In this document: in pieces, positions 11,861 to 38,888 of the stretch
How the letters are laid out: the number at the start of each line of letters is the position of its first letter
Position numbering within the stretch: position 1 is the stretch's first letter
From: a virus
Virus record (IMG/VR): IMGVR_UViG_3300022872_000001
Span: 32,001-96,000 of that record
Strand: one strand, 5' to 3'
Length of the DNA stretch: 64,000 nucleotides
Notes under the pieces: generated by a model
Databases searched by the model: none
What the model saw: only the letters and a program-made list of their open reading frames with translations
What the model was told of the DNA's origin: nothing
Made by a program: the position numbers and the translations under genes

Positions 11861-14005
11861 ATGGAAGAAAAAGACCCTCACCGTAAACATCGCTCATATA
11901 TCAAACTTGTTGATTCTTTCCCTGGTATGGGAAAGACCGATGGTGCCATTATTACTATGAAAGAATGTGTAGAATCAAAGAAAGGTATTATTCTCTATGC
12001 AGGTCCAACTTGCAAACTTCTTAAGGAAGTTGAGAAGCGTTTATGTTCTGCGTTAGGTATAGATAAACATCCTTCGGTCATTCCCATTCATAGTAGTGCT
12101 ATGTACGGTTCCGGAGATCCTATGCATGAACGTGTGATTCATCTTATAGATGGCACTATAAAGGCTCGTTCACATTTGAAACTCGTGGAAGAAGGTTCTG
12201 TGGTTCTTATTACGCATAAGACATTTATGCAGTTACCTCGCTACCTAAAGAATAAAGAAAAAGTTACCGTTATTTTTGATGAAGCTTACAAGTGCGTTTT
12301 CGATCCAGTTGAGGTCAAACTTAAGGGTAAGGAAGTAAAAATCTTCGAAAGACATTTAGGAATACCTCGTGGTAATTCCAATGACTATTTGAAACTCGAA
12401 AAGATCTCGTCCTTGAATAAGATTCGAAAAGATTTGGCGCACCTTGAAACAAAAAAATCAGGTAAGCAGTTATTTGAGATTTTAGATTCGATACGTAAGG
12501 AGTCTTCGGAAGTGTATGTAAAAATTACAGGAGAATCCTCATCTCGTTTTGAATTTCAGGAAGTAAAAATTCCATCGACTATGTTTGATGGATGGGATTG
12601 CGTTTATTTGATGAGTGCATTTTTGAAGACCACTCAGCTTTGGGCATTACTAACACGTGGATATTTCAAGCTTGATGGGATTGTGTATAAACAAAAGATG
12701 GATAATTACGGCGATTGGGAAGTGCAGGAAAGTCGAAAGAAGCTCACACTTGATTCTCGAATGCTTTATGTGATTATGAATGACGTTACTGCTGACTTCA
12801 TTCCAAATTATGAGAAACGTCTGGAACAATTTCGTAAACGTTATGAGTCGGCAACGATCCTTGCGCTTACGGAAGGAACTATGCTATCTCGTAATCAATT
12901 GAATTCTGTACTAGTACCACAAGATACTTACGATGAGAAACAAGAAGAACTGCGTACCTTGATCAATAGTATGCGCGATAAGAAAGGTAGAGTTCTTGAT
13001 GGCAAACATCTACTACGTTTAACCCGTTCTGAATTATTCGAGTTTGCTTTCGCACCCGATAATCATCATACTATAACCAAACCAGTCCACAAAATTCTTG
13101 AGTGGTTTAACTCCTTGGATATAATCGCTCGTGATCCCTATAAATGGTACCTGAAGCATGCTGTCAATATGGCTATGCGTTGGATGGAGAAGCGCAAGTG
13201 TTTACATCTAAAACAGAAAATACCAATAGGTAAACGCTTTCATATCAATCTTGTTCCACAGAAGCCTCTTGTATTATTGAATGTGGCGGAACAAGATCGT
13301 GCAATGGCTAATAGTAAAATCATGGATCAGATTCAACTTCTACCATTTGAATGTGCAGGTATAAATGAGTTTCGAGATCATCGCGTAACCATCTTCTTGG
13401 CTGCGCTGAATGCCAGACCTTCACACCAGAATTTCTATTCCAGTATCTTACCTTGGTATAATCCGAAGCAAGACTATGCAGTAGCTTCTGCGGTGCAGGC
13501 AGTAACTCGTGGTATCTTACGCAATCATAAATCAAAGAAATCTGCATTGATTATTGTATCGGATATTGAAATGGCAATGATGTTGAAAGACCGTCTATTG
13601 GGTGCACCAACAATTGTCAAAGGTGCAGATTATGATATTCCTAATGTACGTGCTTTGGAATTTTCAGTACGCTCAATAAATGCTATTGATCGTCAAAAAT
13701 TCATTACTATCGATCCTATTAAGAAAGCGCAAAGAGCTAAGACTCAAACCAAGACAGGTAAGAAACGCTATGCCATATCTGAAGCCGACGTGCGTAAGAA
13801 TAGTCCGTACTTCGGCGAGATGAATAAAAATAATGTGCGTATGACGCGTATGAAAAAAGCTGCGGAAGTATCCATTCATACACAAGATGACAAAGCCGAA
13901 GTAATTGCACTTGAAAAACTAGTTAAATCTCTACGTCAACAACATTCCGACTGGGCTAAGCAGTATCGTAAAGAATTAAAAGCCAAACAATTCAACAGTA
14001 AATAA
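11861..14005 (+). CDS. SF2-like helicase / possible origin-binding protein
   Basis: Walker A DSFPGMGKT, Walker B VIFDEA, C-terminal QAVTRGILR motif VI-like; start re-called to MEEKDP. Confidence 0.7.
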   Translation: MEEKDPHRKHRSYIKLVDSFPGMGKTDGAIITMKECVESKKGIILYAGPTCKLLKEVEKRLCSALGIDKHPSVIPIHSSAMYGSGDPMHERVIHLIDGTIKARSHLKLVEEGSVVLITHKTFMQLPRYLKNKEKVTVIFDEAYKCVFDPVEVKLKGKEVKIFERHLGIPRGNSNDYLKLEKISSLNKIRKDLAHLETKKSGKQLFEILDSIRKESSEVYVKITGESSSRFEFQEVKIPSTMFDGWDCVYLMSAFLKTTQLWALLTRGYFKLDGIVYKQKMDNYGDWEVQESRKKLTLDSRMLYVIMNDVTADFIPNYEKRLEQFRKRYESATILALTEGTMLSRNQLNSVLVPQDTYDEKQEELRTLINSMRDKKGRVLDGKHLLRLTRSELFEFAFAPDNHHTITKPVHKILEWFNSLDIIARDPYKWYLKHAVNMAMRWMEKRKCLHLKQKIPIGKRFHINLVPQKPLVLLNVAEQDRAMANSKIMDQIQLLPFECAGINEFRDHRVTIFLAALNARPSHQNFYSSILPWYNPKQDYAVASAVQAVTRGILRNHKSKKSALIIVSDIEMAMMLKDRLLGAPTIVKGADYDIPNVRALEFSVRSINAIDRQKFITIDPIKKAQRAKTQTKTGKKRYAISEADVRKNSPYFGEMNKNNVRMTRMKKAAEVSIHTQDDKAEVIALEKLVKSLRQQHSDWAKQYRKELKAKQFNSK

Positions 14006-29145: not shown

Positions 29146-29202
29146 ACTGAATCTAACTGATTCGCCAGTAAATACATAGTACCAATAACTGAAAGGAATT
29201 AT

Positions 29203-29694
29203 ATGTACCGCTCAACTAAAACATACGATCACAGTATCGGCATTAGCGCAGCATTTCGGCAATGGAGAGCTACGCATTCCCATTGTTCTTTCCTGCACGG
29301 GTATGCTCTTAAGTTTCATTTTGAATTTGAAAGTACAACCTTAGACTCGCGCAATTGGGTAATTGATTTTGGTGGTTTGGACTTCGTCAAGCAACTGCTC
29401 CAGGAAAACTTCGATCATAAGACAGTAGTAGCTTCAGACGATCCGCAGCTTGAATGGTTTAAGGAAGCAGAGAAACGAGGCATTCTCCAGCTTACTATTA
29501 TTCCTAACGTAGGCTGCGAGAAATTTGCGGAAGAAATTTACAACATGGTGACTACCGCACTAGCACAAAAGTTTCCCGAGCGTGCTAAGACAGTTAAGCT
29601 GACTTTGGTAACCGTTGCCGAGCATACAGCTAATAGTGCTTCCTACCTTCCTGACCATCCTCGTGAAATTGTTTATATTAACCAACCAGATTAA
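29203..29694 (+). CDS. queD: 6-carboxy-tetrahydropterin synthase (PTPS/QueD family)
   Basis: AFRQWRATHSHCSFLHGY, NWVIDFGGL, FDHKT, GCEKFAE, EHTANSA. Confidence 0.9.
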   Translation: MYRSTKTYDHSIGISAAFRQWRATHSHCSFLHGYALKFHFEFESTTLDSRNWVIDFGGLDFVKQLLQENFDHKTVVASDDPQLEWFKEAEKRGILQLTIIPNVGCEKFAEEIYNMVTTALAQKFPERAKTVKLTLVTVAEHTANSASYLPDHPREIVYINQPD

Positions 29695-29703
29695 GGATTT
29701 AAA

Positions 29704-30090
29704 ATGCCAATTACAAAACGTTGGATCGAAGTTAAGTTTGTCAAAGAAGGAATTCATTGTTACCCACAGGCAGCTACCGATCCTAAACTTGCCACTGGAG
29801 GGTGGGACGATGTCTCATTCTTAGGTTCCCCTCACTTCCATTATTTCCATTTTGTCGTCAAGGTAGCTGTAACATTCAACGACCGTGACATTGAATTCAT
29901 CCAATTCAAACGCTGGTGCGAACGCCTGTATTCGGAGGGTACTCTCGAATTGAATAGCCAATCGTGTGAGATGATGGCAGAAGCCTTGATTGGTCAGATT
30001 GCTTCTCAATATCCTTTGCGGCATATTCAGGTATCTGTGTACGAGGACAACATCAACGGCGCTACTTTGGAATATACGGCAGAGGCTTGA
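29704..30090 (+). CDS. QueD-like T-fold protein (possible DpdL-type CDG decarboxylase)
   Basis: KEGIHCYP...VSFLGSPHFHYFHF...RDIEFIQFKRW...SCEMMAE...VYEDNINGA. Confidence 0.7.
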   Translation: MPITKRWIEVKFVKEGIHCYPQAATDPKLATGGWDDVSFLGSPHFHYFHFVVKVAVTFNDRDIEFIQFKRWCERLYSEGTLELNSQSCEMMAEALIGQIASQYPLRHIQVSVYEDNINGATLEYTAEA

Positions 30091-30091
30091 C

Positions 30092-30901
30092 ATGTCTAAA
30101 CTAAACTTTGCGGACTTCACATTCCTCACCACTACATATGAAGGACGTGTTCCTCTTCTCATAAGTACCTTAACCTGCGTAATGAATTCGGTTGTTAATG
30201 GTGAATTCCAGGTTCAGTGGTACGATGATCAAACCTCTACTAACCTTGTAGCCTATAGCTATGCGAAAGACATGCTGTTGCGTATCGCGCGTGCCACAGG
30301 CAATATGGTATGCATCGTTCCTATCAACGAAGCTTTGTCCGTTGCTCACTCCAAGAAAATTAGTCTTAAACGGAATTATTTCGTTAATTTGGATGATGAT
30401 CTGATTATCTCTCCGAGGTCCCTGGAACGTTTATTGGAATCCACACAGAAAGGCATTGCTGACGTTATTACGATCGGCGTTATGGATGCCGATAATTCCC
30501 GAGGCTTTAAGGATTTTGATGAGGTTCGCTATACCTCAATGGAACATTTCCTACAGCATCATCCTCCAGGTAAAGCAAAGCATCATTATTTTGCTAACGA
30601 ATTTACGTTCCATAATCAAAAATGGATCTCTCAGTTATATTGCATGACCCAAGAGGTTTACCAAGACATGATAATTTGGCGTCCGGTATTGGATAAATTC
30701 ACGCAACGCGGCATCCGTGGCTACGACATTGTCCTTGAAAACCAGCTAGCTGCTAGCAAGTATTCCATCGCTTTGCATTCAGGTAACGAGGCGATCCATA
30801 TTGGTCTAGAAGAGCCTTACATTGGTGGTCAATGGACAGGGACAGATTCGATTGCTACAACGGTGGTATCCACCAAGGATGGTTTCAATGTCAGTCAGTA
30901 A
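30092..30901 (+). CDS. GT-A fold glycosyltransferase (GT2-like)
   Basis: FLTTTYEGR N-terminus, FVNLDDDLII DxD motif, YDIVL. Confidence 0.7.
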   Translation: MSKLNFADFTFLTTTYEGRVPLLISTLTCVMNSVVNGEFQVQWYDDQTSTNLVAYSYAKDMLLRIARATGNMVCIVPINEALSVAHSKKISLKRNYFVNLDDDLIISPRSLERLLESTQKGIADVITIGVMDADNSRGFKDFDEVRYTSMEHFLQHHPPGKAKHHYFANEFTFHNQKWISQLYCMTQEVYQDMIIWRPVLDKFTQRGIRGYDIVLENQLAASKYSIALHSGNEAIHIGLEEPYIGGQWTGTDSIATTVVSTKDGFNVSQ

Positions 30902-32033
30902 TCAAATAGAATATCCAACTCGGCATTTCTGGTTGAATGAAATGCAGAAAATGGTCAAACCCGTTCTGACCCGACTCTCAGAAATGCCATTGGTAAATTC
31001 AGGATCCTTGAATAGGGATTCCTGCACTCACCTAGAGGCTTTAGGCAGAGTGCTATGCGGTATAGCCCCTTGGTTGGAGGCCTACCTGGAAGATAGTGAT
31101 GAAAGAGATATTCGAAATGAATATCTCCATCTATCCTATTTAGCTATTATCGAATATTTTGCAATTGATAAAAAACCCGAGAAGCAAAATATCATCGATT
31201 TTGGATACCTGTGCCAAGCCTTTATTCGATGTCCTTCCTTATGGCGTAGTCTTCCAGATTCCACACAATTCCTTATTCGTGATTTTAATGCCAAGTTGGA
31301 TACCTTATTGCCTATAGCAAATAATTGGGTGGTCATGGATGCGATGCCCTCTGCTTTCTTCCTGAGCCTAGGTGAATCCATTAATCCAGCCAAGATTGAT
31401 TTAGCCTTACGTTTAACAGATACTTGGTATAAAGGGGATGGCATATACGGGGACGGCATTAACCTACAAAATGATTACTATAATTCATTGGTAATGCATC
31501 CCGGTTTGGATGATATTGCAGAGGTTATTTTTTATTCTTTTTATAAAGAGGAGTGGCACAAATTTCCGAGGTATATTCGTGCCCGGGCTTACCGATATTC
31601 GGAAATCCAGGAGCGTATGATATCTCCTGAAGGTACGTACCCTGTTCAAGGTCGGTCAATTACTTATCGGTTTGGTGTGTTTCACGCCTTGTCCCATGCT
31701 TTATGGAAAGGCTATTATCCCGGCAATCGTGCAGCCGCCAATCACGCTCTGGCAACCGTAGTGTCTCGCTTTATTCCTACAATGTATGATTCAAACGGTT
31801 GGTTAAAAATAGGATTCATTGGTGACGAGAATAAAGCAATCGCTGAACCGTATATCTCCACAGGTAGCTTGTATGCCGCTGCTCTAATCTTTCCTATACT
31901 GGGTACCTCTACCAGAGATCCTGTGTGGATATCTCCTACAAATACGGAGTGGACGTCACAATTAGCCTTCGGTGGTTCTTCCTTTCATAAGTACGTCGCC
32001 CTAGGTGATCCTGACCCTAAGCCCTTAGTCTAG
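30888..32033 (+). CDS. DUF2264 family protein (alpha/alpha toroid, glycoside hydrolase-like)
   Basis: THLEALGRVLCGIAPWLE, NNW, WYKGDGIYGDG, DYYNS, ISPEGTYPVQGRSITYR, GWLKIGF, YISTGSLY. Confidence 0.85.
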   Translation: MSVSNQIEYPTRHFWLNEMQKMVKPVLTRLSEMPLVNSGSLNRDSCTHLEALGRVLCGIAPWLEAYLEDSDERDIRNEYLHLSYLAIIEYFAIDKKPEKQNIIDFGYLCQAFIRCPSLWRSLPDSTQFLIRDFNAKLDTLLPIANNWVVMDAMPSAFFLSLGESINPAKIDLALRLTDTWYKGDGIYGDGINLQNDYYNSLVMHPGLDDIAEVIFYSFYKEEWHKFPRYIRARAYRYSEIQERMISPEGTYPVQGRSITYRFGVFHALSHALWKGYYPGNRAAANHALATVVSRFIPTMYDSNGWLKIGFIGDENKAIAEPYISTGSLYAAALIFPILGTSTRDPVWISPTNTEWTSQLAFGGSSFHKYVALGDPDPKPLV

Positions 32034-32070
32034 TAAATACTACATGTCAATATTGATTTAAAGGAACATT

Positions 32071-32670
32071 ATGTCTCTCATCTTTTCCAAGCTTACTGAA
32101 GCAAATAAGAAACATTTTTTGGGATTTATCGGAGTTGATCCTGCTGAATTCTTGGCAGCACAATCCGAGGTACCAGCTAAGGTAGCTACCGCTGTGCAGC
32201 GCATTAAAAACATGCCATTCGCTATTGAATCCACTTACGTTGGTCACTCCGGTGGCAAGGATTCAGTTCTGGTTCGGTACCTGGCGGATTTGGCAATTGA
32301 TTATTTGCCGACGGTACATTCAACCAAACTAGAGGGGGTTCCGAATGAAGTTCATCCTTTAACGCGTGAATTTTTGTATGAACAACCTCGCGTCATTACA
32401 TATTCTCCTTTGGATCTTATGCCTTCACTAGGCTATAAGACTCAGATTGATGGCACGCGCATTGCTGAGCACGATCGTTCCAATGGTCGCGCTGTGGACG
32501 TTGTGATTGACGGTAAGCAGGTCAGTCGTAAGGAACTACCGTTGTATTTGGAGAATGGTCTGTTCGGTTTAAACTTTGTTTATCCTATCTACGACTGGTC
32601 TGACGCTGAAGTATGGGCAGCCATTGCTCATTACGATATCCCATTTTCGGAGGAATATTTGTATGGCTAA
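32071..32670 (+). CDS. PAPS-reductase-fold PP-loop protein lacking the C-terminal Cys motif
   Basis: HSGGKDS, DGTRIAE, YPIYDWSDAEVW; ends at EEYLYG. Confidence 0.8.
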   Translation: MSLIFSKLTEANKKHFLGFIGVDPAEFLAAQSEVPAKVATAVQRIKNMPFAIESTYVGHSGGKDSVLVRYLADLAIDYLPTVHSTKLEGVPNEVHPLTREFLYEQPRVITYSPLDLMPSLGYKTQIDGTRIAEHDRSNGRAVDVVIDGKQVSRKELPLYLENGLFGLNFVYPIYDWSDAEVWAAIAHYDIPFSEEYLYG

Positions 32671-33352
32671 TAAATATGGATCTATCATTTTTGCTCCTCA
32701 CGTGGATGATGAGATAATCGGATGCTGGAGGTATCTCAAACCTCCATGCGCACATACGAAGGTTTTTTACTTTTATGAATTGTCAGCCACACGTCGGCGG
32801 GAGGCATTCGAAAGTAGCCTGGCTTTAGGTTTCGATATTAGTTTTGAACCTACTGAAAAAGAAATCCTCGCTCATGTAGAATCTGCGTTTATCGTTCTTG
32901 TACCTAGTCGCAAGGATAGCCACGCTGACCATAAAAAAATTAATGCCAAATATCGGCATTTGGCCACATCTTTTTATTCGGTGGATATGGTTGATGCTTT
33001 AACTCTTCCAGAGAAGGAAGCTAAGGATAAATTGGATGTACTGAATAAGTATTATCCATCCCAGGCTGAGCTGTGGCAGTCGAATGCCAAATACTATCTG
33101 TTTGAGAGTGTTCACAAAACAGATTATGATTCGTATTCGACCTGGACATTCCTAGATAACAATGAGGTAATTGGTAACCTTAAAATAACGGTAAAAACCG
33201 AATATAAGGAACAGGTGAGTGCTGCCTTGGATAAGCTACACGCCGTAGGTTGTTATTCGTTGAGCCATTTAATGGATATCGCCCTCAGTAATGCCCCGTC
33301 AGGTAAGGTCATTATTACAGACCCCGTAAATAACATTCGATTGGAAGCATAA
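32663..33352 (+). CDS. PIG-L/LmbE-family N-deacetylase
   Basis: FAPHVDDEIIG and DSHADH metal-binding motifs; YPSQ. Confidence 0.8.
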   Translation: MANKYGSIIFAPHVDDEIIGCWRYLKPPCAHTKVFYFYELSATRRREAFESSLALGFDISFEPTEKEILAHVESAFIVLVPSRKDSHADHKKINAKYRHLATSFYSVDMVDALTLPEKEAKDKLDVLNKYYPSQAELWQSNAKYYLFESVHKTDYDSYSTWTFLDNNEVIGNLKITVKTEYKEQVSAALDKLHAVGCYSLSHLMDIALSNAPSGKVIITDPVNNIRLEA

Positions 33353-33793
33353 ATGAAAATCGGAATTGAAGTTGAAGGACGTTTACGTGGTATCAAAACG
33401 ATCTTCATTGATCATACAGAGACTACCTCTCTTAAAGATTTATTGGATACGGATGCGCGTCTTGCTCATATAGGTCATATCTATATTTCGGATATTCCTT
33501 CGACTTGGGATGAATCTAACCTTATGCCCTTGGGTTGGGTATTTGATGGTTACACAATAACAATGGAGGTAACCAATAGCTTAATGGATAGATCCGTGTT
33601 GCCATCCAATATTTCCTTGATGTTGAATGTTGAAGGTATAGGTGACGACGGTTCTTCTTTTTATGAGCACATTGAAAACCTTCTACCTGATGACCAGGTA
33701 AAGTTCAATAACGGATTGAATGTTCTGTGCGTAAGCAAGCGGCATTTTATCCAAACCACTCCTGCTGAATTCCTGGATGATACGGAGATTTAA
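33353..33793 (+). CDS. hypothetical protein with degenerate QueE-like N-terminus
   Basis: IGIEVEGRLRGIKTIFI resembles the IQGEG..G.PSVFV of the QueE in this window, without CxxxCxxC. Confidence 0.6.
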   Translation: MKIGIEVEGRLRGIKTIFIDHTETTSLKDLLDTDARLAHIGHIYISDIPSTWDESNLMPLGWVFDGYTITMEVTNSLMDRSVLPSNISLMLNVEGIGDDGSSFYEHIENLLPDDQVKFNNGLNVLCVSKRHFIQTTPAEFLDDTEI

Positions 33794-34942
33794 ATGACTG
33801 ATCTTATAATCGTGCCACTGGAGCCCCTGGTTGAAAGATATACGGGAGCCTGGTACGAACATATACCAACCGAATTCCGGCGTGTAAACTTTAACGTCAA
33901 GGTAATTGATGGCGTTACACTTGCATCCGAAGTAGTAGTTGGTACGTTTTTGGATATTAACTCTACTGCAAATTACAAATTCTCGCAGTTGATGGTAATC
34001 TCCAAGATGTTTCACAATAAGGAAATTAAGGACGGTACCGTATTCTTCTTTTCGGATATCGAATTCTGGGGATTGGAATCCGTTCGCCTTCTTGCGCAGA
34101 TGAATGGTATCAAAGTATTTTTGACAGGTTTCCTACACGCGGCTTCCTACACCAAGGAAGACGCTTTTGCCATTGCGGCACCTTATCAGCAATACACTGA
34201 ACTTGGCTGGTTGGCTGCTTTGGATTTGATCTTCGTTGGTTCGCTATATCACAAGAAGCAGGTACTCAATCTCCGTATTCTACCTCTTGCACAATCGGAA
34301 AGGGAGGTCGTTTCCATGGGAAATAAGATTCGCGTAACAAAGAATCCTATATTCCTGCAAGATTACCCTGCACTTGATACAGGCAATAAAAAGAAGAAGG
34401 TCCTGTTGACCAATCGCTTTGATATTGAAAAACGTCCGAATGAAACGTTGGAATTATTCTTCCGACTGAAAATTGAATTTCCAGAATGGGAATTTGTGGT
34501 GACTACTTCCAGGTCTTCCTTCAAAGGCAATAATCAGTTGATTATTAAGGAAGCCTTGCAGTTAGAGAATGAAGGTGTAATCACCATCAAGGCAGGACTA
34601 ACCAAACTCCAGTATTATCAGGAGCTAGCCGAATCAGCAATTATGGTAACGCATTCAATTGAAGAGAACTACGGCTATTGCATAGCTGAATCTCTGATTT
34701 ACGGTTGTGCCCCTTTGATGCGTAAGGGGTTAAGTCACTCAGAATTTACCGACACTGATGCTTTACTATTTGATTCATCCGGTGCCGCTCCTTACATAGT
34801 AGCAGACCCCGGTTCGGATTACGTTAAGCTTCGGACGCTTATGGCTACCTTCGGTACTCCTGCTTTCCCTAAAATACCATTCTTGGATACTTCAGGTATG
34901 GCTAACATCATCAAAGAGATACAGAACCTCACGGGAACATAA
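33794..34942 (+). CDS. GT-B fold glycosyltransferase (GT4-like)
   Basis: LEPLVERYT, NRFDIEKRP, EENYGYCIAESLIYGC (ExFGxxxxEA-like). Confidence 0.85.
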   Translation: MTDLIIVPLEPLVERYTGAWYEHIPTEFRRVNFNVKVIDGVTLASEVVVGTFLDINSTANYKFSQLMVISKMFHNKEIKDGTVFFFSDIEFWGLESVRLLAQMNGIKVFLTGFLHAASYTKEDAFAIAAPYQQYTELGWLAALDLIFVGSLYHKKQVLNLRILPLAQSEREVVSMGNKIRVTKNPIFLQDYPALDTGNKKKKVLLTNRFDIEKRPNETLELFFRLKIEFPEWEFVVTTSRSSFKGNNQLIIKEALQLENEGVITIKAGLTKLQYYQELAESAIMVTHSIEENYGYCIAESLIYGCAPLMRKGLSHSEFTDTDALLFDSSGAAPYIVADPGSDYVKLRTLMATFGTPAFPKIPFLDTSGMANIIKEIQNLTGT

Positions 34943-34943
34943 C

Positions 34944-36254
34944 ATGTCAGTCAATTACGTTGCAGCTGGAATCGAAGCTTACTCTGGCACACCTGGGCAG
35001 CTTCACGTTACGTATGAAGCCAACGAAAAAGAATCCTCTCACTTTGGTAGGAAATATAAACAATGGCTTACCACAGATAAGACGATAACGTACGCCAAAG
35101 GAGGTGGTAAGAAATCCATTATGGCTGCACCCTCTGACGTAATGGTACCTATCGGTTCCGCTGCTTTCGTTAAGGCATGTGGCTTAACTAAGATTCTGGC
35201 AAATCCTATCCATAAGAGTTTTGATAAGACCGCGTTTGAAGCTTTAGGTATTGAATCTATTGTGGATTCAGGAGGCTTCCAGATGTTGAAAGGAACTGTG
35301 CCTTTCGTACATCCGGATGATGTGGTCAAACGCTATAACGACACAGCCAATATTGGTATGCCCTTGGACTTACCTGTGCGTGGTTCTGTTGAGCATCTGT
35401 ATTTTGATCCGGTATCCAAGATGATCAAAGCCAACGATAAATATATTCTGGATAGGCTGAATCCGGGTATTGATCTGGCTTTGATTAGTCATGGTACGTC
35501 CTTGGAAAGGCGCAAACGTCGCTTGGATGTCCTTGATCGGGATGCGAAAGTTATAGCCATTGCAGGTTTGAACATTAAACCTGCGCCGGGTGTTGACCAT
35601 GTCTACAATTCAGTAGAGAATTTGATGTACGTCATCCATAGGTATCATAAGACTGCACGATACTTCCACGTCCTAGGTGTTACGTCCAAGCTATGGATTT
35701 TTATATACGCACTTCTGGACGCTACAGGCTATGTGAAGTCTATTGGTGGAGATTCGGTCAGCCATAGACTGGGTGCCTTAGTAGGTATGTACGACACCTA
35801 TGATTTTGACTCAGTAGAATTGAATCGTAAGACGCCTTACAAAACATCTCTTCCATGCAATTGCCCTATCTGCTCGGTAGTAGATGATTCGCGCATCATT
35901 CAGGAATCTATGATCTTGGAGAGTCACAATCTATGGGTTAGGTCTAAGCAGACAGAATTACTGAGCGATATGGCAAAATCTTATGTCAAGGGAACCTTGC
36001 CTATACGGGAGGTTTATAAGATTCTCCGTCTCACCATGGGTGAACCTCGTTTCGTTGCCATGATTCGTTACATAGAGGAAATCATGGTGACCAATAAATT
36101 CAAACCATTAAGGCATGGTAAAAAGGCTGGCTCCTTATTTGCAGTAGCCCCCAAACATGAAATCTCGGATTCAACCAAAGCCTTAAGCGGTCACTACAAA
36201 GAGGTACTTTCGAAATATGAAAAATTCCACAAAGTTAGTTTCTTCAAAAAATAA
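34944..36254 (+). CDS. dpdA: DpdA / TGT-fold DNA 7-deazaguanine transglycosylase
   Basis: IVDSGGFQ, MPLDLP, FHVLG, DSVSH, Zn site CNCPIC...HNL; in a folE/queD/queE cluster. Confidence 0.85.
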   Translation: MSVNYVAAGIEAYSGTPGQLHVTYEANEKESSHFGRKYKQWLTTDKTITYAKGGGKKSIMAAPSDVMVPIGSAAFVKACGLTKILANPIHKSFDKTAFEALGIESIVDSGGFQMLKGTVPFVHPDDVVKRYNDTANIGMPLDLPVRGSVEHLYFDPVSKMIKANDKYILDRLNPGIDLALISHGTSLERRKRRLDVLDRDAKVIAIAGLNIKPAPGVDHVYNSVENLMYVIHRYHKTARYFHVLGVTSKLWIFIYALLDATGYVKSIGGDSVSHRLGALVGMYDTYDFDSVELNRKTPYKTSLPCNCPICSVVDDSRIIQESMILESHNLWVRSKQTELLSDMAKSYVKGTLPIREVYKILRLTMGEPRFVAMIRYIEEIMVTNKFKPLRHGKKAGSLFAVAPKHEISDSTKALSGHYKEVLSKYEKFHKVSFFKK

Positions 36255-36654
36255 GAAGGATAAGAGTAAAAATAAGAGTAAAAATAAGAGTAAGGATAAA
36301 ACCAAGAAGAAACCGTTGGTACGCACCTTAGGTGGTTTGGTATTTTATCCGAAACTTAAGAAAACCCGCACTGATATTTTTTATTCAGTTGCAGAATGGA
36401 TAGAAGCTAAGAAGCCAGACAATGTTTATATCCATGATGCCCTGGAAACCTTGAATACAGCGAACATTGAAATAGTTGACGCTGTGTGTCACAGAGGTGT
36501 TTATACGAAAACCATAGTTCGACCTATGGTTACAACCACAGTAAATAAGATAGGATTACGCAATTTGCATCCGCGACAAAGTCCTACAATGGTTAAAACT
36601 ATGGCCGGCATTCACGTTGCTGACGTGCGCGACCATCACAAAATGGTCTACTAA
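36217..36654 (+). CDS. hypothetical protein with Lys-rich N-terminal repeat (KSKN)
   Basis: ORF; AAGAGTAAAAAT-type short repeats. Confidence 0.55.
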   Translation: MKNSTKLVSSKNKKDKSKNKSKNKSKDKTKKKPLVRTLGGLVFYPKLKKTRTDIFYSVAEWIEAKKPDNVYIHDALETLNTANIEIVDAVCHRGVYTKTIVRPMVTTTVNKIGLRNLHPRQSPTMVKTMAGIHVADVRDHHKMVY

Positions 36655-36667
36655 CAAGGAATTATTT

Positions 36668-37330
36668 ATGCAATATTCAAAAGATGTGGAAGTAGGAATG
36701 GCTGTTCATGAACACCTAATTGCGCGTGGTGTTGAGACTCCCTTCACTTTCAAAGAGCCTAATAAGGCCTCGATTGAACAGCATTTCATCGGCATCATGC
36801 AGGAGATCGGTTTGGACCTAGCAGATGATTCATTGATCGAAACACCAAAACGATTAGCCAAGCTATACACTACCGAGTTCTGTTCTGGTTTAGACTATCG
36901 TAATTTCCCCAAAGCTACCGTGGTAGAAAACAAGATGTGCTATGACGAAATGGTTCTGGAACGGAATGTACAGGTATACAGTCTCTGTGAACATCATTTT
37001 TTACCTGTGGTAGGCGGAGCCTTCGTGGCTTACATTCCGAATGAAAAGGTAATCGGTCTGTCCAAGCTTAATCGTATCGTTGACTTCTTTAGCCGTCGTC
37101 CTCAGATTCAGGAACGGTTAACTGCGCAGATTCAGGAGACCCTTAAGTTTCTTTTGGAAACGGATAACGTTGCGGTAGTCATTCAAGCTGAACATATGTG
37201 CGTTAAGCTGCGTGGTGTTGAGGATGCTTGCAGTGACACTACAACATCGAAATTGAGCGGCACATTCAAGACCAATCCTACTACGCGGGCTGAATTCTTC
37301 TCCCTGTGCAAAGGCTTGTTGCCTGTATGA
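36668..37330 (+). CDS. folE: GTP cyclohydrolase I
   Basis: ETPKRLAK, SLCEHHFLP, GLSKLNR, RRPQIQERLT, AEHMCVKLRGV. Confidence 0.96.
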   Translation: MQYSKDVEVGMAVHEHLIARGVETPFTFKEPNKASIEQHFIGIMQEIGLDLADDSLIETPKRLAKLYTTEFCSGLDYRNFPKATVVENKMCYDEMVLERNVQVYSLCEHHFLPVVGGAFVAYIPNEKVIGLSKLNRIVDFFSRRPQIQERLTAQIQETLKFLLETDNVAVVIQAEHMCVKLRGVEDACSDTTTSKLSGTFKTNPTTRAEFFSLCKGLLPV

Positions 37331-37356
37331 TATCACCTGATTCCGAAGGACACATA

Positions 37357-37821
37357 ATGGCCATCCTTGAATTAACAAATAAGCCTATCATTGCAGATAT
37401 CGACGGATGCTGTTTAGATCCTGAGGAACGTATTCCTAACGCTGAGGCTAAGGATTGGGAAGGATACCATGCATTATGGCGCACAGACACGCCAATTATG
37501 GCGGGTTGCCTTACCTACGCCTTGTTCATCGAGTCAGGTCACAATCTGATTTTCGTTACAGCCCGGGAAGAAAAAGCCAGGGAATACACTCTGTTCCAAC
37601 TTCGGAAGTTCATATCACCTAACGTAACCTCTGATATGTTGTTGATGCGGCCCAATGACAGCTATTCCATTCCGGATGTGGTATTGAAACCCCAATTGGT
37701 TCAGGACGCAGGTTACAAAATTGAGGATATCTTGATGGTATTCGAAGACCGAACTGTAATGGTTAATGAGTGGCGACGATTGGGTGTCATCTGTTATCAA
37801 ACCGCACAACGCGACGATTAA
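37357..37821 (+). CDS. HAD phosphatase (PseT/PNKP phosphatase-domain-like)
   Basis: ADIDG, FVTAR, LLMRP, FEDR. Confidence 0.85.
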   Translation: MAILELTNKPIIADIDGCCLDPEERIPNAEAKDWEGYHALWRTDTPIMAGCLTYALFIESGHNLIFVTAREEKAREYTLFQLRKFISPNVTSDMLLMRPNDSYSIPDVVLKPQLVQDAGYKIEDILMVFEDRTVMVNEWRRLGVICYQTAQRDD

Positions 37822-37828
37822 GGCTCCT

Positions 37829-38089
37829 ATGGCTTTCTCTCTGTTTCCCAAATTGGTATATGGAATACAAAAGGTAACGTTTCATCCTAAATCAGCTATA
37901 GATTATATACTGGGTGATACGGTATACGTAATTATGGATCCCTTGGAACCTAGCATGGGAGCAGAGGGAATAATAACCCTAGTTTATCCGGATGACACAT
38001 ATCAGGTTGTTCTCACAGGTTTGAATGTTGGCGTATCTTTGCGCGTAAATAAGAAACAGTTAATAAATAAAAGGTTTGAAAATGAGTAA
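37829..38089 (+). CDS. hypothetical protein (SH3-like beta pattern)
   Basis: ORF between the HAD and queE genes. Confidence 0.55.
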   Translation: MAFSLFPKLVYGIQKVTFHPKSAIDYILGDTVYVIMDPLEPSMGAEGIITLVYPDDTYQVVLTGLNVGVSLRVNKKQLINKRFENE

Positions 38090-38888
38090 AGTTATCCCTA
38101 TAGTTTCTGTCATTCAAAATGTGGATCGTAACGTAAAAGCTAAGGAATATGATGCATTAGATGGCGATCTTCTCGTCACTTCCATATTCCGCACCATTCA
38201 AGGCGAAGGTCCCTACGCAGGTTACCCTTCTGTCTTCGTTCGGTTAGCTGGTTGCAACTTTGGTTCCAAGGATTCCAATTGCCAGTTTTGTGATTCTTTT
38301 TTCGGATTCGATCAAGGCCGGCGTGTTTCTTCCTTGCAGCTACTTGAAGAACTTACCAGTCTGCCAGGTTATAACTCTCAGGATGTGTTGGTCGTCACAG
38401 GCGGCGAGCCAACGCTGCAACTCGCACTTATCGAATTGTTGGTTAAGGCTAACCTGTATTTCGCGCATGTGCAGATTGAAACGAATGGTACTCAGTCTGG
38501 ATTCTTTAAGCGCGTAGAAGAATTGAATGTCCAGCGTCAGTTCATGACCGTGGTGAGCCCTAAGGCATCCTACCTAGCTAAGCGCTATTCGGAGCTTTCT
38601 CCTATCGTTATGTGGAACGCTACCTGTTTGAAGTTTGTTGTTGATTCCGATCCTGAAAGTCCACATCATATCGTGCCTCAATGGGCTTTTGATTCGCAGA
38701 AGAAGATCTACGTTTCTCCTATGGCAGTGTATCTCAAACCTTATGCTGGTGAAGTATCCAGCATCTGGGAGGACGGTTTGATCGATAAGGCAGCTACTGA
38801 AAAGAACTACAAATATGCGGCTGAGTACGCAATGAAACATAATGTCCTACTGTCGGTACAGACACATTTATTCCTGGGGTTGGCATAA
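38082..38888 (+). CDS. queE: 7-carboxy-7-deazaguanine synthase (radical SAM)
   Basis: FRTIQGEG, VFVRLAGCNFGSKDSNCQFCDS, VTGGEPTLQ, IETNG, VSPK, LSVQTH. Confidence 0.93.
   Translation: MSKVIPIVSVIQNVDRNVKAKEYDALDGDLLVTSIFRTIQGEGPYAGYPSVFVRLAGCNFGSKDSNCQFCDSFFGFDQGRRVSSLQLLEELTSLPGYNSQDVLVVTGGEPTLQLALIELLVKANLYFAHVQIETNGTQSGFFKRVEELNVQRQFMTVVSPKASYLAKRYSELSPIVMWNATCLKFVVDSDPESPHHIVPQWAFDSQKKIYVSPMAVYLKPYAGEVSSIWEDGLIDKAATEKNYKYAAEYAMKHNVLLSVQTHLFLGLA

Follow-up and report, generated by a model that had tools for sequence, protein, structure and literature searches.

Does the base made by a phage 7-deazaguanine cluster carry a sugar, when genes for glycosyltransferases and a deacetylase lie within the cluster itself? 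This question was raised by a locus in IMG/VR virus record IMGVR_UViG_3300022872_000001, of which a 64,000-nt stretch (positions 32,001 to 96,000; hereafter the window) was analyzed. The record, from an uncultured jumbo phage, comprises 192 kb and is estimated to be 82% complete, and the window is part of it. On balance, we favor the reading that the locus encodes a phage pathway for a hypermodified 7-deazaguanine with an amino sugar, which would be placed in the phage DNA; gene comparisons and analogy with characterized sugar pathways argue for it. At the protein level, the closest named relative is Burkholderia phage BCSR5, and Achromobacter phage Motura is more distant; both are jumbo phages of about 220 kb each. 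Megablast of the region against GenBank phages gave no match.

A preliminary description of this DNA had noted a co-oriented, tightly coupled cluster of 14 genes, and this observation was confirmed: all genes are present on the + strand between 29203 and 38888, with intergenic gaps of -56 to +37 nt. Its gene labels were borne out by profile, fold, and motif checks, except for the term "glycosidase-like" that was given to the DUF2264 protein. The genes are as follows.

29203..29694, +, QueD, 6-carboxytetrahydropterin synthase (PF01242, 55 bits; phrog_2389, E 3e-42)
29704..30090, +, DpdL-family QueD paralogue (phrog_17812; motif LGSPHFHYF)
30092..30901, +, GT-A family-2 glycosyltransferase (PF00535, 23.4 bits; Atlas GT2 clusters)
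30888..32033, +, DUF2264/'GH154' protein (PF10022, 222 bits)
32071..32670, +, PAPS-reductase-like PP-loop ATP pyrophosphatase (SGGKDS; phrog_2302/424)
32663..33352, +, LmbE/PIG-L-fold zinc hydrolase (fold model and motifs)
33353..33793, +, orf146, acidic QueE-shaped partial barrel (structure matches)
33794..34942, +, GT-B fold GT4-type glycosyltransferase (PF00534; R-x4-K and E-x7-E motifs)
34944..36254, +, DpdA-type DNA guanine transglycosylase (39-sequence profile match to PDB 7UI4)
36217..36654, +, orf145, basic (isoelectric point, pI, 10.2), with a Lys-rich N-terminus
36617..37330, +, FolE, GTP cyclohydrolase I (PF01227, 212 bits; likely start ATG at 36668)
37306..37821, +, HAD phosphatase of the PNKP type (PF25109, 46.9 bits; start uncertain; also in BCSR5)
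37766..38089, +, orf107
38076..38888, +, QueE, radical-SAM 7-carboxy-7-deazaguanine (CDG) synthase (PF04055, 32.5 bits; C-x8-C-x2-C at residue 58)

The top NCBIfam matches of QueE were QueE models, at about 70 bits. No relative of orf107 was found among the related loci.

Gene neighborhoods of the glycosyltransferase and the deacetylase

The preliminary description had proposed that the sugar genes serve the deazaguanine system and that the sugar sits on the 7-substituent; this interpretation is partly supported. Its first half fared well for GT-B and the deacetylase, whose tie to the deazaguanine system is strongly supported by comparison of phage sequences. GT-B relatives were found in 437 IMG/VR contigs, and neighborhoods were counted in the best 80 loci. 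At least one deazaguanine gene lies within 10 kb of GT-B in 76 of the 80 (DpdL in 69, FolE in 59, QueE in 53, and tRNA-guanine transglycosylase (TGT) in 47), and in two of the remaining four loci FolE and DpdL were found further along the contig. Similarly, the deacetylase scan of IMG/VR gave 108 contigs, and GT-B was located within 8 kb of the deacetylase in 76 of the 78 loci in which this proximity was counted. Common occurrence of the glycosyltransferases without dpdA, which the preliminary description had named as counterevidence, was seen neither for GT-B nor for the deacetylase.

Furthermore, the deacetylase is fused to DpdL in one reading frame in 12-15 loci. The fused frames span 247-306 residues, with the LmbE/PIG-L domain at the N-terminus and the DpdL domain at the C-terminus, and were found at the following positions and in eight more IMG/VR loci.

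L015:8744-9583, LmbE/PIG-L-DpdL fusion
L016:8648-9565, LmbE/PIG-L-DpdL fusion
L025:7532-8284, LmbE/PIG-L-DpdL fusion
L031:7782-8522, LmbE/PIG-L-DpdL fusion

These fusions link a deacetylase-like enzyme to the proposed CDG decarboxylase.

The order of the genes was also compared. A block of DpdL, PP-loop protein, PIG-L-like protein, orf146, and GT-B lies between queD and dpdA in the window, in BCSR5, and in IMG/VR locus L003, the closest relative in that database. In Motura, the same slot is occupied by QueC and an asparagine-synthetase-like gene (AsnB). The Xanthomonas T4-like phages BUDD and X1 have the same block beside a DpdA that shows no BLAST similarity to the window DpdA; none of these genes is mentioned in the paper on phage X1. 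GT-B is situated inside the FolE/QueD/QueE cluster in seven of seven matching GenBank phage records, which include BCSR5, BUDD, X1, ACP17, Sinorhizobium phage Phosso, and Synechococcus phage BUCT-ZZ01, and likewise in the PA5oct family, which was found via the GT-B profile. It adjoins DpdL in most of these clusters, those of the PA5oct family included. Across about 158 loci, three main layouts were observed: DpdL plus GT-B (the ACP17 and PA5oct type), QueC plus deacetylase plus GT-B, and the window type, consisting of DpdL, PP-loop protein, deacetylase, orf146, and GT-B; orf145 comes after DpdA in the window-type clusters. QueC was found with DpdL or with the PP-loop gene in none of these loci.

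These data bear on whether the glycosyltransferases and the deacetylase might act elsewhere, on another DNA base, on virion proteins, or on the host envelope, and be co-located merely by the packing of DNA-metabolism genes. The GT-A and DUF2264 genes would fit such a role, being present in no other deazaguanine cluster examined and linked to this one by position and translational coupling alone. For GT-B and the PIG-L-like protein, however, the co-occurrence holds in phage lineages that are unrelated and that have different types of DpdA, and it is accompanied by gene fusions and overlapping stop and start codons; moreover, GT-B is the sole family-1 glycosyltransferase in the 192-kb record. 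We regard action on another target as quite improbable.

The smallest form of the system was observed in L051, a record of 70,905 bases that CheckV rates as 100% complete. Here, GT-B overlaps the TGT/DpdA gene (L051:9986-11892), and no FolE, QueC, QueD, DpdL, or other PTPS-family gene was found in the whole record; this phage would have to use a deazaguanine base made by its host. The locus also informs a second alternative, in which the product of the cluster is a free deazapurine glycoside like huimycin, or a modified nucleotide, that serves as an antimetabolite, signal mimic, or defense inhibitor rather than as a base of DNA. Huimycin and the dapiramicins are indeed sugar-bearing 7-deazaguanine free bases made with FolE, QueD, QueE, QueC, and one glycosyltransferase, and a purine phosphoribosyltransferase occurs in eight related loci. 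But a CheckV-complete phage that keeps only GT-B and TGT of the system is hard to reconcile with a free product, GT-B abuts or overlaps the TGT/DpdA gene in many lineages, and PA5oct, in which GT-B stands beside DpdL, carries modified G in its DNA. A free glycoside is, in our estimate, improbable.

Several further genes were observed in the related clusters. A xanthine-guanine phosphoribosyltransferase homologue is present in GT-B/DpdL clusters at L008:3093-3554 (BUCT-ZZ01) and in seven other loci including PA5oct, which suggests that some such phages may produce the base as a nucleotide, too. P-loop kinase-like proteins were found as well: an AAA_28 protein in BCSR5 (L001:8138-9064) and in seven other loci, and an AAA_18 protein in the phiST cluster (CGPG_00066, L091:46381-46860). 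These genes hint at a phosphorylation step that would lie outside the published pathways. In Rhizobium phage RHph_I1_18, a macro-domain (Appr-1-p processing) protein follows DpdL (L010:8408-9232), with no GT-B within 8 kb, so that DpdL clusters exist in a further variant.

Predicted enzymes for the base, its insertion, and the sugar

The genes for base synthesis were analyzed for their signature residues. QueD has CSFLHGY (residues 28-34, window:29284-29304) in place of the published CxxxHGH; HGY was also observed in the QueD of ACP17, such that this clade has another residue at one of the two histidine positions of the motif. The DpdL family profile, built from relatives of the window protein, matched phiST DpdL (CGPG_00067) with E 2.6e-29, and the window DpdL shares 49% identity with the protein of ACP17 that was named and expressed as DpdL by Cui et al. 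Compared to the published LxxxHRHxF, the Leu, both His, and the Phe are kept in LGSPHFHYF, and the Arg is changed to Phe; this change is shared with L003, and the remaining relatives have HRH. DpdL has been proposed in the literature to act as a CDG decarboxylase. It sits in a genome with FolE, QueD, QueE, and DpdA, and no QueC was found in the 192-kb record.

Single-sequence searches against PDB gave weak matches for DpdA, GT-B, the PP-loop protein, and the PIG-L-like protein, and larger alignments were needed. A DpdA profile of 39 IMG/VR sequences (A6) matched the DNA-guanine transglycosylase PDB 7UI4 with E 1.2e-11 and bacterial TGTs at about 1e-4. The protein has 436 aa (pI 9.3) and shows DSGGFQ at residue 108, GGDS at 268, and CNCPIC, the CxCxxC zinc site, at 305. 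D108, D142, and D270 are invariant in the 39 sequences, and D270, within GGDS, is aligned with SIDS of 7UI4. It is also 25% identical to the annotated TGT of Motura. A single-sequence Pfam hmmscan detected no TGT domain (PF01702) in any of the five DpdA types tried, that of the window among them. DpdA is thus classed, by profile and motifs, as a divergent member of the TGT superfamily, and from homology it would be able to exchange guanine in DNA for a 7-deazaguanine.

For GT-B, the PF00534 score was 25.4 bits by hmmscan (cut-off 26.4), 26.3 by genome search, and 26.7 with neighboring matches, and two orthologues scored 42 and 30.3 bits. More than 7,500 database relatives were found, and most of the 120 best carry PF00534. 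The motifs are R208-x4-K213 and E291-x7-E299; R208, K213, and E299 are invariant in seven sequences, down to 23% identity, and the E291 position is Glu or Asp in all seven. Narrow GT-B patterns (alignment A1) gave 73 pattern matches in 185,579 prokaryote genomes, of which none was confirmed, a result that is not evidence of absence.

The PIG-L-like protein was modeled with AlphaFold (mean predicted local distance difference test, pLDDT, 85.5). Its top 30 Foldseek matches were almost all of the LmbE family and comprised TT1542, BC1534, BshB, diacetylchitobiose deacetylase, MshB, and teicoplanin deacetylases (best E 5.6e-6; probability 1.00; template modeling score, TM, 0.42-0.50). It carries PHVDDE at residue 12 and HADH at 87, and P12, H13, D15, D16, E17, H87, and H90 are invariant in 24 sequences. 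Judged from the model, it is a divergent LmbE branch, assigned by fold and motifs and not a curated family member, and it is likely a sugar de-N-acetylase. Transfer of N-acetylglucosamine (GlcNAc) followed by de-N-acetylation is known from MshA/MshB (mycothiol), BshA/BshB (bacillithiol), and PIG-A/PIG-L (the glycosylphosphatidylinositol (GPI) anchor).

A third alternative was considered at this point, namely that GT-B is a non-catalytic or non-sugar partner of DpdA, used in DNA handling or base delivery, and that the LmbE-fold protein cleaves a non-sugar amide of the base. DpdA3 and DpdA4 alone did not work in E. coli (PMC10516641), GT-B stays joined to DpdA in L051 even without biosynthetic genes, and the LmbE fold includes the hydratase GalB. 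Nevertheless, the nucleotide-sugar signature of R-x4-K and E-x7-E is kept in distant relatives, an acidic GT-B is ill-suited to DNA handling, and the pairing of GT4 with PIG-L has three independent sugar precedents. We consider a mere partner role very improbable.

The PP-loop protein contains SGGKDS at residue 60, invariant in the alignment, and DGTR at 127, without a C-terminal redox Cys motif. It matched phrog_2302 at 6.5e-11 and Atlas viral PF01507 clusters with a score of 0.96; PDB profile matches to FAD synthase and CysD were weak, and no Pfam match was obtained at E 0.01. The adjacent orf146 (146 residues; model pLDDT 91) gave the QueE of E. coli (Z 6.9) and B. subtilis (Z 6.4) as its best VIA matches and two QueE clusters as its two best Atlas matches (TM 0.59). 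Against PDB, no significant Foldseek match (best E 0.0098, TM <0.45) and no sequence-profile match was obtained. On the model, orf146 is QueE-shaped and nothing further, the Z values being modest. A second radical-SAM QueE was ruled out for orf146 by the missing cluster cysteines, as its one Cys, at residue 126, does not allow a 4Fe-4S triad. Complex prediction for the PP-loop protein with orf146 gave a score of 0.00, which speaks neither for nor against a complex. A second PP-loop paralogue was observed 3' of folE in L003 (L003:13223-13801).

The remaining two sugar genes form a pair that appears specific to this phage. GT-A scored 23.4 bits for PF00535 against a cut-off of 23.3 and has DDD at residue 101; its Atlas features score was 0.97, and its structure matched a cluster that is 98% PF00535 with TM 0.70. 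GT2 enzymes invert and give beta linkages. DUF2264 covers 350 of 353 profile positions of PF10022, and sequence comparison matched it to the glucuronate dehydratases PDB 9O4U and 9NWF (E 8.6e-50 and 6.2e-49). Members of the 'GH154' family are now regarded as beta-glucuronate 4,5-dehydratases (PMC12269599); the label "glycosidase-like" was dropped on this ground, and the protein is likely a beta-uronate 4,5-dehydratase, as judged from these relatives. Its gene overlaps the GT-A stop by 14 nt. No homologue of GT-A or DUF2264 was found in about 160 related loci, and none of GT-A in GenBank phages. The layout with two glycosyltransferases in the preliminary description is therefore present here but specific to this phage, as GT-A and DUF2264 are absent from the other loci examined. 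Their slot is variable: BCSR5 has a P-loop kinase-like gene in it, and L003 has a second GT-B-like gene (L003:5797-7158) encoding 453 residues, with E 7.6e-7 to the GT-B profile.

Proposed pathway, sugar site, and transcription units

From these assignments, a pathway can be proposed. By homology, FolE, QueD, and QueE would make CDG from GTP, the DpdL-family paralogue would be its decarboxylase, and DpdA would swap guanine in DNA for the modified base. Because GT4 and PIG-L are paired as in mycothiol, bacillithiol, and GPI synthesis, we infer that GT-B moves GlcNAc from host uridine diphosphate (UDP)-GlcNAc onto the deazaguanine and that the LmbE/PIG-L-fold zinc hydrolase then strips the acetyl group, leaving glucosamine (GlcN) with a free amine. 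The amino-sugar idea of the preliminary description is consistent with this pairing and is, by analogy, well grounded. The PP-loop ATPase and orf146 may carry out a further ATP-dependent step, for example, adenylation followed by amide or amine formation; family chemistry and mutual exclusion with QueC point to this role, and the step would be needed only in QueC-less clusters. In the window phage alone, the GT2 enzyme probably attaches a beta-uronic acid, which the GH154-type dehydratase would turn into a 4,5-unsaturated uronate; the product would be a disaccharide. This addition is plausible because of the beta linkage expected of GT2, the dehydratase reading of GH154, and the 14-nt overlap.

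The second half of the earlier interpretation, a sugar on the 7-substituent, was not supported. The pair of GT-B and deacetylase is accompanied by DpdL in some loci, by QueC in others, and elsewhere by DpdA alone, and the C7 group differs with the partner, being 7-H from DpdL (the phiST product) and 7-cyano from QueC. We rejected the 7-substituent since GT-B works alongside such different C7 groups; the sugar-bearing atom is probably another one, as deduced from this gene distribution. The one chemical precedent for a sugar-bearing 7-deazaguanine is huimycin, with the sugar at N2. As for timing, the acidity of the accessory enzymes, together with the pterin/deazapurine-binding folds of two of them, would speak for decoration of the free base before insertion, whereas the canonical TGT pocket reads N2, which would speak for decoration after insertion if N2 is the site.

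A fourth alternative concerns the fate of the sugar, which might be a transient handle for solubility, channeling, or activation that is lost by insertion, such that virion DNA contains a plain base, for example, 7-deaza-2'-deoxyguanosine (dDG). The acidic accessory enzymes with small-molecule-binding folds (the T-fold of DpdL and the QueE-like orf146), the fusion of PIG-L to DpdL, the plain dDG in phiST DNA, and the presence in the window phage of a dehydratase that could prime uronates for removal would all agree with such a handle. On the other hand, phiST is fully substituted with dDG without GT-B, so that a sugar is unnecessary for dDG; no sugar-releasing glycosidase is conserved in the module; and the L051 phage, with GT-B and TGT only, has no biosynthesis for a handle to serve. 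We consider a transient handle rather unlikely, if the least improbable of the four alternatives.

Some observations weigh against the favored reading, in which an amino-sugar deazaguanine is placed in DNA. PF02585 remained below its gathering cut-off of 28.2 bits in three PIG-L-like orthologues (18.3, 24.3, and 20.3 bits), and the LmbE fold also houses non-deacetylases such as GalB. The accessory enzymes are all acidic (pI 4.5-6.0), and only DpdA and orf145 are basic. If DpdL decarboxylates CDG, the product would have no obvious hydroxyl or amine handle at C7 for a sugar, and an N2-glycosylated base is not obviously accepted by a canonical TGT pocket. In addition, genes for UDP-sugar dehydrogenase or nucleotidyltransferase were not found in the 192-kb record, and GlcNAc or GlcN as the sugar is suggested by analogy alone.

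A more specific form of the favored reading can be put forward as a tentative possibility: an alpha-GlcN 7-deazaguanine, here a disaccharide ending in a 4,5-unsaturated uronate, with the sugar at a non-C7 atom, would be pre-formed and inserted by the enlarged DpdA. The attachment could be an N-link at N2, for which huimycin is the model, or a C-link to the electron-rich pyrrole ring. If true, it would be without precedent twice over: no other glycosylated purine is known from any DNA, and no other bulky glycoside is known to be made first and then inserted by base exchange. The sugar in virion DNA, its attachment site, and the timing of its addition are predictions from the gene content.

The preliminary description had listed three AGTAAATA boxes; those at 32032 and 36540 were exact, and the one given as 29168 was one base off, being at 29167.

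29167..29174, +, AGTAAATA box, 28 nt upstream of the queD start
32032..32039, +, AGTAAATA box, 31 nt upstream of the PP-loop gene start
36540..36547, +, AGTAAATA box, upstream of folE

The window contains 20 copies of AGTAAATA, among them those at 13997, 15572, 19003, 26859, 29167, and 32032, against 3.3 expected, a six-fold excess, and 20 was never reached in shuffles. Nearly all copies have the same orientation as the surrounding genes, and many of them are about 25-50 nt before a start codon. The box resembles TATAAATA, the T4 late promoter, and it is probably a T4-like late-type promoter of this phage. The boxes likely divide the cluster into three transcription units, of which queD, the PP-loop gene, and folE would each be the first gene.

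Downstream of the cluster, an ORF earlier called Tad1-like (window:40246-40596) gave no Pfam match at E 0.01. In the corresponding region of BCSR5 (L001:15204-15524), a 106-residue protein matches the Acb2/Tad1 hairpin domain with 45 bits.

Comparison with known systems

The preliminary description had stated that no sugar-bearing 7-deazaguanine has been chemically characterized in phage DNA, and in line with this, literature searches found no report of such a base in DNA. To our knowledge, the characterized sugar-bearing DNA bases are all pyrimidines. If the favored reading is true, a purine analogue with a sugar would add a new chemical class to the known genome modifications. Its bulky, positively charged base would be relevant to escape from restriction, CRISPR, and glycosylase defenses, and also to sequencing artefacts and enzymatic DNA labeling tools. 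At least 437 IMG/VR contigs carry GT-B, as do cultured phages that infect Pseudomonas, Burkholderia, Xanthomonas, Acidovorax, Sinorhizobium, and Synechococcus, and its carriers include the PA5oct group, jumbo phages of Pseudomonas aeruginosa with modified G in their DNA. The DNA of PA5oct is resistant to enzymes with G in their cleavage sites, and the responsible modification was not identified in that work (PMC12191111).

The closest known system is the DpdL/DpdA3 system of phiST (Cui, Hutinet et al., NAR 2023, PMC10516641), in which all G is replaced by plain dDG. It shares with the window FolE, QueD, QueE, DpdL, the lack of QueC, and a distant DpdA of the TGT superfamily, but GT-B, the deacetylase, the PP-loop protein, and the QueE-like domain are all missing from it. 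The profile of window-type DpdA did not pick up its DpdA3 (259 aa), and the DpdL motif differs, with HFH in the window versus the published HRH. When dpdL and dpdA of ACP17 were expressed in E. coli without GT-B, no dDG was formed, and the authors suggested that further enzymes may be required (PMC10516641); the omission of the adjacent GT-B may explain this failed reconstitution.

The hui cluster of Kutzneria albida resembles the window in combining the GTP-to-CDG enzymes with a glycosyltransferase acting on 7-deazaguanine. Huimycin carries GlcNAc, N-linked to the 2-amino group of 7-deazaguanine, and dapiramicin carries a disaccharide (PMC7439116). In contrast to the proposed phage base, these are free secondary metabolites, and their system has QueC and an O-methyltransferase, no DpdA, and no reported deacetylase. 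The mycothiol, bacillithiol, and GPI pathways, for their part, share with the window the pairing of a retaining GT4 GT-B enzyme with an LmbE/PIG-L zinc deacetylase. Their acceptors are inositol phosphate, malate, and phosphatidylinositol, not a nucleobase as proposed for the phage. In the mycothiol and bacillithiol pathways, the freed amine is next the substrate of an ATP-dependent ligase, whereas the ATP-using enzyme of the phage is a PAPS-reductase-like PP-loop protein and not a ligase of the MshC or BshC type.

In vertebrate tRNA, mannosyl- and galactosyl-queuosine consist of a TGT-installed 7-deazaguanine with the sugar on the cyclopentenediol hydroxyls. They differ from the phage proposal in being RNA and not DNA and in having a cyclopentenediol side chain that these phages cannot make; the existence of these sugar-modified queuosines is stated in PMC10690763. 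Finally, the glucosyl-hydroxymethylcytosine of T-even phages, along with other sugar-bearing pyrimidines of phage DNA, is similar to the proposal in using a phage GT-B fold transferase, a host UDP-sugar, and a non-canonical base for nuclease protection. There, the base is a pyrimidine with a hydroxymethyl/hydroxyl handle made at the nucleotide or DNA level, while the window phage would introduce a purine analogue by base exchange. The system combines two known kinds, deazaguanine base exchange and glycosylated phage DNA, and is not categorically new.

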